A stretch of 64,000 nt of DNA, from assembly GCA_965248055.1 (NCBI GenBank), contig CBDFIJ010000004.1:2624001-2688000 (forward strand). Direction: 5' to 3'. Of the stretch, positions 1 to 5,338 are shown piece by piece. Source of the DNA: Candidatus Multivoradales bacterium. Its GTDB lineage: Bacteria > Acidobacteriota > Thermoanaerobaculia > Multivoradales > JAHEKO01. Made by a program: the position numbers and the translations under genes. Within the stretch, counting starts at the first letter, position 1. Each line of letters starts with the position of its first letter. The notes beneath the pieces are model-generated. The model had not been told where the DNA came from. It was given only the letters and a program-made list of their open reading frames with translations, and ran no database searches.

Positions 1-204
1 GGCCGTGTTGGGCTAGCCAGTGACCACTGACCAGCGCTTCCAGTGAAAGCGTTTCTTCTTGGCCAGTTTTTCCAGTTTGCGGCGCAGGTCAGTGATCTCT
101 TGCTGGTAGTCGCGGTCGCGCGCATTAACCCCACCAGCTAGTTCGTAGGACTGCCGTATGAAGCACACGGGCAGGGGCAACCAACCCTCGGCTCACCGCC
201 TACT

Positions 205-1023
205 TCATTTCGACGATGACTCAGTCGTTTTCGTCTCCCGATCGCTCGACAAAAATTCGAATCCTGCTGGGTAGGTTTGCATCACCGCTTGAATCGAAAC
301 CATGCAGGATTTTGTATAGAAGTCGGTGAAGGTGGAGCGAGCGTAGACCAGTTCTTCGTAGAAGTCGGAGAACGAGGATCTGCCAGAAAGCATCATCTGC
401 ACGAATTCTCCCTTTTCTGTAAGGGGCAGGACACCTTCGAAGGCTCCTAACGTACGTTCGGTCAAGTGGAGCAACATTTTCAGGTCTTCCCGTTGTGCTT
501 CCAGAACCGATTCAACACTGTCAAAACGACTCGCGGCCATAGGGTCCGTATCGGGATCTAATACTTGCTTCCCAAGGTCGGAGTAGCGTGCACCGTCGCG
601 TTGTGAAATTCGCTGGAACGGTTGCGCTTCTTGGTAGAGTTTCCGAGTCGTCTCGTCAAAGACCTTGAGAGTCGGCTCGCTTTTGAGCGTTTTCAGCAAC
701 TCGTCGTAGAGGTTTAAGGCACGCTTCATGGCAGGCACGGATTCACTCAGATGGGAGAATGCGAGTCGAAACGAACCAGCGTCGGCGCCACCGTGGAACT
801 CAGCTATGTTGCCACGTTCCATAAATCGGTTGCCTTCGACCTGACGACCCACAATGTCATCGAACAATGTGTCGGTCAGCAGGAAGCTTTTCTCTAACCA
901 GTCGATCGTGACCAAACTGTCACGATATGGAACATGTCAGGCGGGGGCGTGAGCTACCGCCGGAACGCTCAAGAGAGTCGTTCCAACCAGGCATACGATT
1001 GCGATTCTCCTAATTTGGCGCAT
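205..1023 (-). CDS. Secreted protein with in-frame TGA at codon 29; candidate selenoprotein (272 aa)
   Basis: The ORF-track 236-aa ORF (TTG at 915) extends in frame through a single TGA (937-939) to ATG 1023/1026. That ATG overlaps the upstream gene's stop and has SD AAGGAG 7 nt upstream. The extension reads MRQIRRIAIVCLVGTTLLSVPAVA-HAPA-U-HVPYRDSL, i.e. a classical signal peptide followed by the TGA. A SECIS-like hairpin follows. Confidence 0.75.
905..939 (-). promoter_or_regulatory. UGA plus bacterial SECIS-like stem-loop
   Basis: mRNA reads UGA-CAUGUUCCAU-AUCGUGAC-[AGUUUG]-GUCACGAU: a perfect 8-bp stem (926-919 / 912-905) and a 6-nt loop with G at position 2 followed by U, starting 18 nt after the UGA. 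This fits the general bacterial SECIS model. Confidence 0.7.
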
Positions 1024-2528
1024 CATCGAACTCCTTTGCCGCCAGCCCCATTTTCTCGACTATCCAGGGCGGAGGTTGATTCAACTACAAGTGACGCCAA
1101 AAATTGTAACACAGCGCCCTGGTCGGCGATAGAGAGCGCGTCAAACGCGTTGCGTGCGGCACGAGCCTCGCCGGAGTGGTGCAGAATCGCCTCGCGCAGA
1201 GTGGTCAGGTTGCCACGATGCCCGTATGGACTGCTGCTACCCACGTGCCACAGAGGAGTTGTGAGGAACATATCGGTCGCGACGTTGTCCTGCCGCAGCC
1301 TTTCGTTGCAAAAGAACGGATCCTGGTCGTCGCAGATCCGGTGGCGCTTAAGGTCGGTGAAAGCTCGAACTACGGCGCCGTCTTCACCCAGCGGTTCTAG
1401 GCGATTGCCGAACCCCTCATAGCGTAGGTCAAAGTCGAATGTTGAGGCGACATGTTCAGGACGAAGATTCCCGGGTCGGTTGTGGGGATTGGGCTCACTA
1501 AAGATGGCCGATTCAAGGTGGAGTTCCGGGATATGGCATTTCGCGCAACCAGTTCTTGAAAACGTATGCTCACCAGCAGCCAGCGCAGCGGACTCTGCTT
1601 CGGTTGCAGGCTTTCGAGTGGGAATGGACAAAGCGGCCTGAAATAGAGTGATCGCTGTGATGTCTCCGATCGTCAACTCTTCGGAGACACCGTCTTCGTC
1701 AAAGTCCTGCTGACCGGTGCGCGGCCAGCCGAAGCGCTCGATGGCTTGCATTCCATGGTGGTGGTTCATGGCGTTGATGGTGAATTCTCGTAGGGAAATG
1801 ACCACCCCCTTGAAACTGAATGGTTTGATGACGAGATCGGGATCAATACCTTCAATATGCCGAGCGTCAACGGTACCGTCGGGACGACCAATTAAGCGAC
1901 CGAAAGAGACACCCTTTGCTGTCAGTGGTACCTCTATGTCATGACCGGCGCCAGCGGCCGCCTTCAGTACCTGCTTCTTGACCGCCAGGAGGTCGCGGGT
2001 CATTTCCCTCGCCAGCAACTCGATGGCCCCGGATCCCATTAAACCCGGCGTGTTTCGTTCATTGGATTCTTGGCTGGACACGGACGTTGTTACCGGGTCG
2101 CGAAACTGCGCTAGGACGAATGCGTTGGCAACGGAATCACCACTGCCACCCGGGGACGGCTGGTTGTGACAGCCAGCGCAAGAATTGCTGTCCGGACCGG
2201 ATGTTCTGATCACGGCCGGTGCTCCCGGGTTACGTTTGGTGGGCTTGCTATCGCCGGTGGCCATAGGCCTACCAAAGCCATCTGCGACCGTAAACCGGGC
2301 GACGAACACGTTGTGCCCATGATGCACTAGGTCGGACAACGAGAACGCGCCGCGATCAATATCCTCCTGCTCGATGTGATTGTGGAGGCCGCGTTCCACG
2401 TATTGTTCGACTTCTGCTTTTGCGGCAGGAAATGTCGAGATAGCTATCACCATTGCTGCTCCGACAATTCGTAGCAACAGTAACCAACTGTTCTCTTGAG
2501 CCGATAACGGCGTTCGCGTTCCTAACAT
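1023..2528 (-). CDS. Di-heme oxidoreductase (DHOR family; bCcP/MauG superfamily), exported
   Basis: Signal peptide, two CxxCH motifs (CAGCH, CAKCH), RNTPGLMG, FTDLKRH and TPLWHVGSSSPYGHRG-like motifs typical of DHOR proteins. Confidence 0.85.
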   Translation of the reverse strand: MLGTRTPLSAQENSWLLLLRIVGAAMVIAISTFPAAKAEVEQYVERGLHNHIEQEDIDRGAFSLSDLVHHGHNVFVARFTVADGFGRPMATGDSKPTKRNPGAPAVIRTSGPDSNSCAGCHNQPSPGGSGDSVANAFVLAQFRDPVTTSVSSQESNERNTPGLMGSGAIELLAREMTRDLLAVKKQVLKAAAGAGHDIEVPLTAKGVSFGRLIGRPDGTVDARHIEGIDPDLVIKPFSFKGVVISLREFTINAMNHHHGMQAIERFGWPRTGQQDFDEDGVSEELTIGDITAITLFQAALSIPTRKPATEAESAALAAGEHTFSRTGCAKCHIPELHLESAIFSEPNPHNRPGNLRPEHVASTFDFDLRYEGFGNRLEPLGEDGAVVRAFTDLKRHRICDDQDPFFCNERLRQDNVATDMFLTTPLWHVGSSSPYGHRGNLTTLREAILHHSGEARAARNAFDALSIADQGAVLQFLASLVVESTSALDSRENGAGGKGVR

Positions 2529-2640
2529 CAGATCAGAAACAAGTTTGTCATACTGAGGTTCCTCAGCATCGAGACGGATAAACGACCCTACTTGGCAGGG
2601 TGGAGTTTGTGCTGACTGTAAGCCTTAGGTCGTGGGAGAG

Positions 2641-4503
2641 CTACGTGCTCGGGGCTGGCGAGGACCGGGCCACCGGGTAGAGCAGATACTCGCTGTCGTA
2701 GTAGGGCGTCTGGCGATAGAACCACATCAGACGTGCCGCGGGGTCGGCGGCGAAGTCGGGGTCTGCGGTGAGCTTGGCCTCGAAGGCTTGGCGTAGGTCG
2801 TCGTCGGTCCTGAGCATCTCAGTGGCAGTGGCTTCCAGCACGTCATCGTCGTAGTACTCGGTACGGGTGAGGATCTCCAAGAAAAACCCCCATTGAAAGA
2901 AGGAATCTGGAGCCTGGGGTTCTAGGAGCAAGATCGCTAGGTCGCCCAGCGGCTGGTCGGTAGCGACCTTGAATGAACCTGGGCCGAAGGTCCGGGTGTG
3001 AACCTCGACCTCAGGTGTTCCCGGGTCGACCCGAGCGTGTCCCTCAAAGGGATTGCTGGCTCCCACCACTGATGGACTGTCGGCGTCGGCGAGTCGTGCT
3101 TGGGGGAGTCGAAGCATCGCAACTCCGACGGTGGTTGGTTGCTCGATCGCTTCTACTTCAATCCCATGGTGCTGCAGTCGCCTGGCGATGTCCGCCCAAG
3201 CGGCGGGGATGTAATAAGCGTCAGGTCGCGTGACAGACAACGCCGGTTGATCCATGTTGATCCGTTGGACACGCTGGGTTTCCGGTTCCCCCAACCAATC
3301 GATAATTTCGCCTCCGGTGATTGCAGACAATCGAACCTGAGACTTGATGGCGGCGAACTCCAACTCTTCGCCAGAGCCTGTGCCGGAGGTGAACGCCAAC
3401 GGCACGGTGTCGTTCCTAATGGCTCGATCCTCGGTGGTGGCCTGCTGCAGGCCAGTTGCCTCGGCGGCCAACACGCGCAGTACACCGCGCAGAAACACAT
3501 AAGTGCCGAGGACTCTTTGATCGTAGGGTTTGAGCGAGTGGTTCTCGACCAGGATCGTCGCCAAATGGCGAGCGTCTCCGTAGCCATTGGAAAACCGTAG
3601 ACCAGCAGTCCAACCCCAGAATCCGTCGTTGAGATCTTTTTGGTTGACCGAGAGCACCAGCGGTCCGGGAATGTGCCCTGCATGATCGAGTTCACTGTCG
3701 AGAAACGGGCGCAGCTTGCCGTTCAACCAAGAACGAATCCCGGGTGACCAACCGCCGACGTTCCAGCCGTAGGTAATGTCGTACTGATAGTCCTCGCCGT
3801 TGGTGACGTGAACGTCGATGTAAAGGTCGGGCTGATAGTCATTGATCGCTTGCACCATGGCGCGAATCTCGGGCGTATCGAGTTTGGCGTAGTCGCGGTT
3901 GAGATTGAGGTTGCGACGGTTGCTGCGCCATCCCATCTCCTCCGGTCCGCGTTGATTGAAACGATTGGTGGCGGAAAATCGCTCGTGTCCGTCGACCGAG
4001 AGGATCGGAATAAACAGAAAATTGACTTGGTCCAGCAGCCGCTCGGTGTCCTTACCACCCACGGTCAGGTCGCGCAGCAGCATCAGGCCGGCGTCTTTAC
4101 CGTCGATCTCTCCAGCGTGAATACCAGCTTGTACCAGCACCGTGGGGCGGCCGTTGGCCCGGACAGCCTCAGGAGTGGAAGCGCCACCGGCTGCGATCAG
4201 CATCCAGATGTCGCGTTGCTGGTCGCTCTTGCCTAGCGAGACCATCGACAGATTGGGCGCGGCGTCGGTTAAGCGCTGGGCGAACGCTACGGTTTCGGCA
4301 TAGTGCGGCGTGGTGGTGAGACCAGAGGCTTCGGCCGGGGTGATCCAGGGATCCGTGTCTGTGACGATCAGGCTTCGAGTTTCGCCTGACCATTCTGGGG
4401 CTGGCGGCAGGACTGAGCGGATACTGGATGACGGGTCGCCGGATGCGCTTGCTGACCCCAGGACGCCAAGAAAAACGGCTGCGAGCAGTCCCGCAGCCGT
4501 CAA
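2641..4503 (-). CDS. M14 family zinc carboxypeptidase, secreted
   Basis: IHAGEIDG zinc motif, NLNRDY and DVH motifs. Start re-placed at TTG 4503 before a signal peptide, because the longer ORF-track start overlaps the neighbouring gene. Confidence 0.85.
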   Translation of the reverse strand: MTAAGLLAAVFLGVLGSASASGDPSSSIRSVLPPAPEWSGETRSLIVTDTDPWITPAEASGLTTTPHYAETVAFAQRLTDAAPNLSMVSLGKSDQQRDIWMLIAAGGASTPEAVRANGRPTVLVQAGIHAGEIDGKDAGLMLLRDLTVGGKDTERLLDQVNFLFIPILSVDGHERFSATNRFNQRGPEEMGWRSNRRNLNLNRDYAKLDTPEIRAMVQAINDYQPDLYIDVHVTNGEDYQYDITYGWNVGGWSPGIRSWLNGKLRPFLDSELDHAGHIPGPLVLSVNQKDLNDGFWGWTAGLRFSNGYGDARHLATILVENHSLKPYDQRVLGTYVFLRGVLRVLAAEATGLQQATTEDRAIRNDTVPLAFTSGTGSGEELEFAAIKSQVRLSAITGGEIIDWLGEPETQRVQRINMDQPALSVTRPDAYYIPAAWADIARRLQHHGIEVEAIEQPTTVGVAMLRLPQARLADADSPSVVGASNPFEGHARVDPGTPEVEVHTRTFGPGSFKVATDQPLGDLAILLLEPQAPDSFFQWGFFLEILTRTEYYDDDVLEATATEMLRTDDDLRQAFEAKLTADPDFAADPAARLMWFYRQTPYYDSEYLLYPVARSSPAPST

Positions 4504-4523
4504 GAATTGCGATCGGATGAAAC

Positions 4524-4727
4524 CTAGACGAAACGAGACCAGAAGAAACCTAGCACCCCGAGTCCGACCATCGCCGCGCCGACCATGGCAAAGGTCAAGA
4601 AGGCGGCGGGATGAATCCATCCTAGGGTGATCATCTGTACCAGGATGCCGACCGCGACCAAGATTGCCGAGGTGCGAACAATTTCCCTGCCTTTGGGCGA
4701 CAAAATAGCTACCGGTCGTTCGCTCAT
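4524..4727 (-). CDS. Small 2-TM membrane protein coupled to the NapC-type cytochrome
   Basis: ATG 4727 overlaps the NapC stop (ATGA); two hydrophobic helices; 67 aa. Confidence 0.7.
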   Translation of the reverse strand: MSERPVAILSPKGREIVRTSAILVAVGILVQMITLGWIHPAAFLTFAMVGAAMVGLGVLGFFWSRFV

Positions 4728-5338
4728 TGGGCACTCTCCAACGATCCTGCGGTCCAAAGGTCAAAGTCTTCGATCTCATCCACATCATGGATCAGATCAT
4801 GACAGTCCAGGCAACTTGTTTCACCTGACGCCAGCGCATCCGCTTCGCCGATGTGGTCTTCGCCTTCCTCAAACGATCGCGCCCCCTGATGGCAGTACAA
4901 GCATTCGCGATTGCTGTAGGGGTCGTAGAGTTCGATTTTTTCCGGTGGGGTCCCGAGGTAGTGCATCCAAACGTGCATGAGCCCCTTCATCTTGGCTTGC
5001 AGGTCACCGTACATCGCGTAGGAGGTGTGGCAGGTGTAGCAGGCATGGTCCTGGTCGACCAAGTGATTTTGGTAGTGGACAGCGGGCAGGTAGTCGCTGT
5101 CGTCGATCAGCAGGCTCTTTCCGTAGTCGCCCATCTCATGGCACGACAGACAGAAGTGGGTCGATTTGGACTGCTCCAAGTGGGCTCCGGTGTTGAGGGC
5201 GGTGACCACGATGGGCAGCGCGAACAAGGCGAAAAACCCCAGGATGGCGCCGCGTCGACCTACCGAGAAATTGGGCTTAATCGCCAGGCCCAGTGCGGCG
5301 AGACCGGCGACAGCTCCGAGGAGAAGCAGAAGCTTCAT
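4724..5338 (-). CDS. NapC/NirT (CymA-like) membrane-anchored tetraheme cytochrome c
   Basis: N-terminal TM helices; four CxxCH motifs (CLSCHEM, CYTCH, CLYCH, CLDCH). Confidence 0.88.
   Translation of the reverse strand: MKLLLLLGAVAGLAALGLAIKPNFSVGRRGAILGFFALFALPIVVTALNTGAHLEQSKSTHFCLSCHEMGDYGKSLLIDDSDYLPAVHYQNHLVDQDHACYTCHTSYAMYGDLQAKMKGLMHVWMHYLGTPPEKIELYDPYSNRECLYCHQGARSFEEGEDHIGEADALASGETSCLDCHDLIHDVDEIEDFDLWTAGSLESAQ

Follow-up and report, generated by a model that had tools for sequence, protein, structure and literature searches.

We analysed a 64,000-nucleotide stretch of the genome of a Candidatus Multivoradales bacterium (contig CBDFIJ010000004.1 of assembly GCA_965248055.1), hereafter the window, and focused our study on a gene located at positions 205-1026 of its minus strand, to which all gene coordinates in the window refer. 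Judged by comparison with its homologues, this gene is very probably a true selenoprotein gene, with an in-frame UGA that would be decoded as selenocysteine (Sec). Sequence comparison establishes the conservation of the UGA, the position of a downstream hairpin, the occurrence of Cys-containing homologues and the presence of the Sec machinery in the genome. Altogether, we assign a probability of about 0.82 to the joint reading that the gene encodes a Sec-decoded, exported partner of the co-encoded di-heme enzyme DHOR with an N-terminal redox-active centre. Confidence in any specific chemistry of this centre is much lower than that in the Sec gene. The features of the locus are as follows:

205 to 1026, minus strand: full coding sequence of the putative selenoprotein, 273 codons plus the TGA stop at 207-205, starting at ATG 1026 or ATG 1023
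1031 to 1036, minus strand: Shine-Dalgarno sequence AAGGAG as read from the sequence, 4 nt before ATG 1026 and 7 nt before ATG 1023
952 to 1026, minus strand: predicted Sec-type signal peptide, residues 1-25, with putative cleavage after A-V-A
934 to 951, minus strand: predicted mature N-terminus H26-A-P-A-U30-H31, with the candidate Sec codon TGA at 939-937
905 to 926, minus strand: core hairpin of the candidate selenocysteine insertion sequence (SECIS), with an 8-bp stem and the loop AGUUUG (918-913); the extended stem-loop spans 940-894
304 to 306, minus strand: Cys241 (in KSCM), candidate partner of Sec30, covarying with the Cys5 column of the family
1023 to 2528, minus strand: DHOR (PF06537) di-heme gene of the bCcP/MauG superfamily, whose stop overlaps the selenoprotein start

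The original prediction for this DNA, made from its letters and a list of its open reading frames (ORFs), had proposed that the annotated gene is the 3' part of a longer one, and all the positions on which it relied were confirmed in the sequence. The annotated gene comprises only 205-915, and gene calling (table 11) begins at the TTG at 915-913 because the frame is open from 1026 except for the TGA at 939-937, the sole in-frame stop between 1026 and 208. Two ATG codons (1026-1024 and 1023-1021), both in frame with this TTG, are preceded by the AAGGAG sequence, and the first of them overlaps, as ATGA, the TGA stop (1025-1023) of the upstream gene, which encodes 501 aa. The read-through product starts with MMRQIRRIAIVCLVGTTLLSVPAVA/HAPAUHVPY, where the slash marks the predicted cleavage; this is the arrangement of signal peptide followed by H-A-P-A-[UGA]-H-V-P-Y that had been described, and its AXA/[H/Q] boundary is kept across the family alignment. 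The mature protein would be 248 residues long, with a pI of ~5; besides U30 it has a single Cys, C241, as had been noted, which makes two Cys-equivalents. Contigs of four Logan runs (depth 17-61), all from one sample and study that is possibly the source of the assembly itself, showed no alternative letter at 937-939 and no difference at any of positions 150-1150. The GC content of the gene is slightly below that of its neighbours, and a scan for promoters and terminators at the locus gave nothing useful.

The strongest evidence comes from homologous genes. The window protein shares 55% identity with the product of L023, from a Methylomirabilis metagenome-assembled genome, and 54% with that of L025, from a metagenome contig. 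Both genes have a strong Shine-Dalgarno sequence, an ATG and a signal peptide, and continue as HAPAUHGVW with TGA at the aligned codon. Window, L023 and L025 genes thus all read signal peptide/HAPA-TGA-H, with conserved coding on both sides of the UGA. Four other loci (L026, L027, L028 and L030) read straight through with HNVWCH after the cleavage boundary, and L022, whose genome belongs to the family of the window genome, reads HNVWAH in a continuous frame, which leaves Cys at the aligned column in four of the five non-TGA loci. The same column is Cys in 22 of the 25 representatives with an N-terminus, which were picked by eye among 74 for a visible signal peptide and motif region; Met, Ala and Pro occur once each. 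Counted from an AXA-type cleavage site, its position is 5 in every case. The presence of TGA plus a hairpin at this codon in two homologues, and of Cys there in most others, is the pattern by which the original prediction proposed to judge its claim.

A word-indexed protein search returned seven relatives, all of them shorter than the read-through product and devoid of the N-terminus, one starting at exactly the same MVTI... position as the annotated ORF. This truncation is expected if gene callers stop at the TGA, and in L023 and L025 the DNA provided that explanation. In a tree built from 47 rows of alignment A4, with short fragments, P0063 (an AbiEii chimera) and P0081 (TPR) left out, the window protein, L023, L025, P0004, P0005 and P0007 form one group (support 90/83), and every member of this group is either TGA-verified or N-truncated. 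A long branch (100/100) parts the group from the main Cys clades.

The genome of the window (G000) contains the four genes selA, selB, selC and selD, whose presence had been named as a check. The selA, selB and selD matches scored 450, 341 and 348 bits, respectively, all above curated cut-offs, and the tRNA-Sec scored 75.5 bits and was called SeC with anticodon tca by ARAGORN. Its gene (G000:C4:2576758-2576852, plus strand) lies on the same contig as the window, ~47 kb before the window start. A selB gene was also found in the genome carrying L023. TGA is an ordinary stop in this organism, as had been stated, with no genome-wide recoding: it ends 276 of the 851 long ORFs on the main contig. 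Two other genes of G000, both outside the window, carry in-frame UGA codons: selD itself, a selenoprotein gene (TCGU; G000:C4:1264958, plus strand), and an FdhA-like molybdopterin gene with the context CAATUHAPTV (C4:1911845, minus strand).

The perfect 8-bp hairpin originally pointed out ten nt after the UGA was confirmed. It consists of ATCGTGAC (926-919), the loop AGTTTG (918-913), within which the annotated TTG start falls, and GTCACGAT (912-905), with a UGA-to-loop spacing of 18 nt. Its minimum free energy ranges from -13.6 to -17.7 kcal/mol (z -2.05 to -2.42 vs dinucleotide shuffles). The bacterial SECIS model, as given in the available part of a 2026 review (PMC13188914), has a loop of 3-9 nt, an upper stem of 4-16 bp, a distance of 16-37 nt from the UGA, a G within the first two loop positions that is usually followed by G or U, and a minimum free energy of at most -7.5 kcal/mol. 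The window hairpin agrees with this model as outlined there on every count, with an 8-bp stem, a 6-nt loop and a G at position 2 followed by U. Hairpins of this class, defined by a spacing of 16-20 nt and a loop of 4-7 nt reading N-G-U, follow 71 of the 105,452 genomic TGA trinucleotides (0.067%) when the stem has at least 8 bp, and 441 (0.42%) when at least 6 pairs are required. Combination of the hairpin class with a filter for read-through ORFs retained 20 places in the genome, among them selD, the FdhA-like gene and the candidate.

The decoding signal of the candidate resembles those of the two known selenoprotein genes of the genome. The apical loop starts 17 nt after the UGA in selD (GGUC), and 18 nt after it in both the FdhA-like gene (GGUCU) and the candidate (AGUUUG), in each case as an N-G-U loop; the G-U pair of letters stands at +20/+21 after the UGA in the candidate and in the FdhA-like gene, and at +19/+20 in selD. 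FdhA and SelD also share with the candidate the Cys in their homologues and the dependence on selA, selB, selC and selD, although its protein family is unrelated to either. Among the homologues, L023 and L025 retain the stem in the same alignment columns; one C-G pair has become G-C in a compensatory manner, and there is a single A.C mismatch. Although L025 encodes DKF instead of the DSL of the window gene, its loop still contains GUUU and stands on a GAC/GUC stem, and the window gene and L023 use identical codons for D-S-L-V, with a chance of ~0.007 as estimated from codon usage in the genome. No hairpin was folded at the aligned place in any of the five Cys/Ala genes.

Several observations weigh against decoding as Sec. 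The conservation of the hairpin in TGA-containing homologues, which the original prediction had made a test, holds for position and stem in L023 and L025 but not for energy, which is unremarkable in both (z -1.51 and -0.14, respectively, vs dinucleotide shuffles); moreover, 37% of the synonymous-codon shuffles of L023 and 25% of those of L025 fold equally well or better, compared with 3% for the window gene. The AGUUUG loop is unlike the GGUC(U) loops of selD and the FdhA-like gene, and an Rfam scan of positions 1-3000 (E <=10) gave four irrelevant weak matches, none of them on the hairpin. The aligned column is not universally Cys, with Ala in L022 and P0031, Met in P0016 and Pro in P0075, and the TGA-bearing genes seen as DNA are three only (window, L023 and L025). 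The Sec call relies chiefly on conservation of the UGA, on the Cys found in homologues and on the presence of the machinery, with the hairpin as consistent support; on these grounds the assignment of the codon (residue 30 from ATG 1026) to selenocysteine was supported.

The protein itself matches none of the selenoprotein families searched, as the original prediction had supposed. The read-through protein has no Pfam and no NCBIfam match, the selenoprotein-family domain (X) likewise has none across 47 members, and sequence-profile searches of the PDB with alignments A3 and A4 gave no match below E 0.02, the remainder being helical or coiled-coil noise. No such family and no H-x3-U-H motif was found among the 119 families/subfamilies in Table 1 of the 2026 review (PMC13188914). 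Decoding of this kind is ordinary, but neither the family, nor Sec at such a position, nor a pairing with DHOR was found in curated models or in the literature searched, a statement that covers the literature short of the supplementary BSepDB and deep-Sep lists, which could hold the family. Most likely, therefore, the sequences define an undescribed selenoprotein family, of which the window gene is the first member seen.

A profile search of 1.84 billion representatives returned 75 relatives at E <=0.001, 55 at <=1e-10 and 30 at <=1e-30, and many of the 75 also start without the N-terminus. The family, rare and patchy, was present in two of 300 genomes of the window's order but was not found in the other genome of its genus; two of 401 genomes sampled across its phylum had it, as did two of 251 genomes in the phylum of L023. 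The helical body attributed to the protein received support from a crude analysis of hydrophobic periodicity in the alignment, in which 126 of 236 windows were of alpha type and 36 of beta type, and which suggests a mainly helical protein.

The best functional lead is the strict pairing with DHOR, which the original prediction had not mentioned. A DHOR-type gene directly adjoins the family gene in all eight loci for which DNA was available; it precedes the family gene in the three Sec loci and follows it, often with an overlap, in the five Cys/Ala loci. Four of the eight DHOR genes were examined with Pfam, and identification of the rest relied on alignment or on the conserved GDSKPT...CxxCH block. 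The window DHOR scores 43.6 bits for PF06537 (cut-off 22) and has the CxxCH motifs CAGCH and CAKCH. Six full-length DHOR proteins are 40-68% identical, with two CxxCH motifs each. Searched against the PDB, the DHOR profile gave weak matches, only to bacterial di-heme cytochrome c peroxidases, and the scores of the window DHOR with the MbnH and MauG-like NCBIfam models were far below the cut-offs. Neighbours other than DHOR are not conserved across loci. The ORFs downstream in L023 and L025 are mutually unrelated and were not found in G000; therefore, the conserved module would consist of two genes only.

Seen from the enzyme, the pairing is not obligatory. DHOR homologues were present in 26 of 61 relatives and the partner family in two of the same 61. 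Against the idea of a dedicated pair, the closest DHOR among relatives outside the partner-bearing genomes (56% identity, in G022) has no partner gene as neighbour, and the partner family was not found in the G022 genome, which is 89% complete. This DHOR (L033, G022:C92, ~800-2250, plus strand) has a predicted mature N-terminus HEPHVCGPG, rich in His and Cys, which may be a coincidence. A DHOR paralogue 47% identical to that of the window was observed in another genome (L034, G015:C104, 2014-3693, minus strand). Downstream of it, at 1150-1974 (minus strand), an unrelated secreted protein rich in His, Cys and Trp is encoded, with no Pfam match; this different neighbour suggests that the dedicated partners of DHOR enzymes vary. 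An ORF beside the G015 paralogue that had been considered as a family member was discarded, being a wrong-frame ORF with no relation to the family profile.

Several residue patterns within the family suggest a redox-active or metal-binding centre. The predicted mature protein starts with His in 24 of 34 sequences and has His at +5 in 23 of 33, and His1 is accompanied by His6 in 23 of 24 cases. The Cys241 column, in an analysis of conserved columns that left out P0009, P0063 and P0081, is Cys in most members with Cys5; it is lost together with Cys5 in L022 (Ala5, Val241) and P0016 (Met5, Val241), and the members with Cys5 and Val241 (L028, P0010 and P0014) have another Cys 2-4 residues later. 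Several Met residues are also conserved. In P0043 and P0071 a cupredoxin domain is fused to the C-terminus; it has H..C..H..M ligands, and its best NCBIfam match is CopI. As called, both proteins are N-truncated and may also hide a TGA, and P0073 carries a Big_1 domain in place of the cupredoxin. Two facts count against this functional reading. A subfamily with Gln1 and Gln, Arg or Leu at position 6 keeps Cys5, so that the histidines would not be essential to the role of the Cys, and P0075 has C241 without Cys5. Of the two structural guesses of the original prediction, the metal-binding hook is a candidate reading, for which His1 and His6 covary but a subfamily lacks both and has the Cys; Cys241 as a partner in a Se-S bond gains some support from its loss with the residue-5 Cys in two lineages, P0075 being an exception.

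These observations can be combined in the following proposal. Translation would begin at ATG 1026 or 1023 and be coupled to that of the di-heme gene upstream, and SelB with tRNA-Sec would read UGA 939-937 as selenocysteine under the direction of the hairpin at 926-905. The Sec-type signal peptide would be cut after Ala25, and the exported, presumably mainly helical protein of 248 residues would therefore begin with H-A-P-A-U-H; cleavage, export and helical fold are all deduced from the sequence. The protein may act as the dedicated partner of the co-encoded DHOR, a bCcP/MauG-like di-heme enzyme, a proposal made because of the strict adjacency, the redox or metal residue patterns and the action of bCcP/MauG enzymes on secreted partners. 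A flexible N-terminal arm would hold a reactive selenol between His26 and His31, probably closing onto Cys241, and the resulting redox-active centre would exchange electrons with the di-heme enzyme or be oxidised by it.

With respect to the nature of this centre, the form we prefer, at somewhat less than even odds, is a soft-metal site, most likely of copper. Its specific version, a Sec-ligated and likely copper-containing centre built from the free N-terminal His, Sec5, His6 and possibly Cys241 or Met, and matured or redox-cycled by DHOR, is a speculative proposal that we consider rather unlikely as it stands. To our knowledge, no natural Sec-ligated copper site has been described. If such a centre exists, biology would have a selenium-metal site of a new type, distinct from those of the Mo/W and Ni-Fe enzymes.

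Second in preference is a metal-free centre in the same Sec-decoded gene product, where Sec30 and Cys241 would form a selenylsulfide and the protein would serve as a periplasmic two-electron donor or acceptor for the di-heme enzyme. We regard this as a tentative alternative, less likely than not. It would account for the company that Cys241 keeps with Cys5 in most members, for the loss of both in L022 and P0016, for the replacement Cys 2-4 residues on in L028, P0010 and P0014, and for the Gln-type subfamily, which retains Cys5 and Cys241 without the histidines; most selenoprotein families in Table 1 of the review, moreover, carry redox-type Sec/Cys motifs (PMC13188914). A bare Se-S pair leaves unexplained, however, the strict covariation of His1 and His6, as well as the C241 of P0075 in a protein without Cys5, and hemes and fused cupredoxins are one-electron carriers.

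An improbable third option is that the protein is the substrate of DHOR, a MauG/MbnH-like enzyme that would oxidise Sec/Cys5 or a neighbouring aromatic residue to give a protein-derived cofactor or metal site. The adjacent DHOR belongs to the bCcP/MauG superfamily, in which MauG-preMADH and MbnH-MbnP are precedents (available part of PMC11951088), adjacency is strict in eight of eight loci, and the DHOR paralogue of G015 next to a different secreted protein fits one enzyme with one dedicated partner. In the Cys-type motif HNVWCH, Trp precedes Cys; the Sec clade, on the contrary, has Ala before Sec (HAPAUH), so no aromatic target is conserved family-wide, and DHOR scores far below the cut-offs of the MbnH and MauG-like NCBIfam models.

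It is very improbable that the TGA is a true stop, whether as a nonsense mutation, in a pseudogene or through an assembly error, or that translation in fact yields the product of the annotated 236-aa ORF from TTG 915, with the upstream 29 codons untranslated or forming a leader peptide. Such an explanation matches the standard annotation, and TGA is a common stop in this genome. Nevertheless, the same TGA stands in the same six-residue context in two ~55% identical homologues, one of them from another phylum, the upstream codons encode an in-frame signal peptide in all three TGA genes, and the non-TGA homologues read straight through. A start at TTG 915 would lie inside the hairpin loop and would lose the signal peptide carried by 30 N-terminus-bearing homologues (25 representatives and 5 loci), and an assembly error is at odds with the contigs of four runs from one sample, which agree at the position. 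Least probable of all, read-through of the UGA without Sec, by near-cognate suppression with Trp, Cys or Arg, finds nothing specific in its favour beyond a small hairpin with a loop that is not of the GGUC type, and it is opposed by the complete Sec machinery, by a hairpin that fits the bacterial SECIS model with the spacing of the known selenoprotein genes of the genome, and by Cys as the homologous residue.

The preferred reading, a Sec-decoded exported partner of DHOR, can be compared with known systems. According to the available part of PMC11951088, MauG acts on preMADH, and MbnH generates the kynurenine at the MbnP copper site. In the MbnH-MbnP and MauG-preMADH pairs, as here, a di-heme c-type enzyme of this superfamily is encoded beside a secreted protein of otherwise unknown function. 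MbnP ends with a copper site (same part of PMC11951088), and in our case copper is hinted at by the cupredoxin fusions of relatives. MbnP is, however, a different protein from the candidate, which is probably helical and has neither a match to the MbnP model nor the WxW motif. The enzymes differ as well: that of the window is a DHOR (PF06537), far below the cut-offs of the MbnH and MauG-like models. MbnP was accordingly rejected as an identity for the window protein (no NCBIfam match and no WxW motif in its sequence), and so was a cupredoxin, Pfam showing no such domain in the window protein and a fused one only in its relatives P0043 and P0071.

Metal sites at or near the N-terminus include the His-Cys hook of nickel superoxide dismutase (NiSOD) and the histidine brace of lytic polysaccharide monooxygenases and CopC; type-1 copper sites have the ligand set His2-Cys-Met. 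The candidate likewise would have a free N-terminal His, from the predicted cleavage, with a close thiolate or selenolate and a second His, but the NiSOD motif is H-C-x3-C whereas that of the family is H-x3-[U/C]-H, and a subfamily replaces both His. The position of Sec also differs from that in known selenoproteins with CxxU or UxxC redox motifs: here it would be residue 5 of an exported protein, between two His.

In iron-uptake operons, DHOR (DUF1111) accompanies helical secreted proteins of imelysin type (Peptidase_M75). These pairs resemble ours in joining DHOR to a secreted helical protein, the helicity being predicted in our case, but the candidate has no PF09375 match. Imelysin was rejected as an identity: the window protein has no Pfam match to PF09375 at E <=1, the 25 families listed as most often matched by the 47 members (of 59 matched at E <=1) do not include it, member 1 has no match at all, a survey of 61 related genomes found no imelysin gene, and no HxxE motif occurs among the conserved columns of the family.

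If the proposal is correct, the family escapes standard annotation, since gene callers terminate at the UGA, and a selenoprotein family outside curated models would exist in poorly studied environmental lineages (Acidobacteriota and Methylomirabilota). With Sec at residue 5 of an exported protein and between two His, selenium could be a metal ligand or an extracytoplasmic redox centre. The strict pairing offers a testable partner for the large and functionally obscure DHOR/DUF1111 branch of the bCcP/MauG superfamily, and the natural Sec and Cys forms would allow a direct comparison of what selenium adds.

Further places in G000 combine an in-frame TGA with a SECIS-like hairpin and a read-through ORF, and are possible additional selenoprotein genes: C4:294618 (plus strand, context QCHYU), C4:3147219 (minus, VWUP), C4:1438375 (minus, GCYPU) and C4:2399712 (plus, HRCU), the first three with loops of the GGUC type. 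A cupin-like ORF occurs just upstream of the Cys-type gene in L026 (3489-3920, plus strand; weak match to Cupin_7) and in L030 (2274-2954, plus strand; recognised by eye). In the window, a 715-aa homologue of M14 zinc carboxypeptidases is encoded at 2641-4788 (minus strand), upstream of DHOR and separated from it by a 112-nt gap, an arrangement that is not conserved in the related loci.

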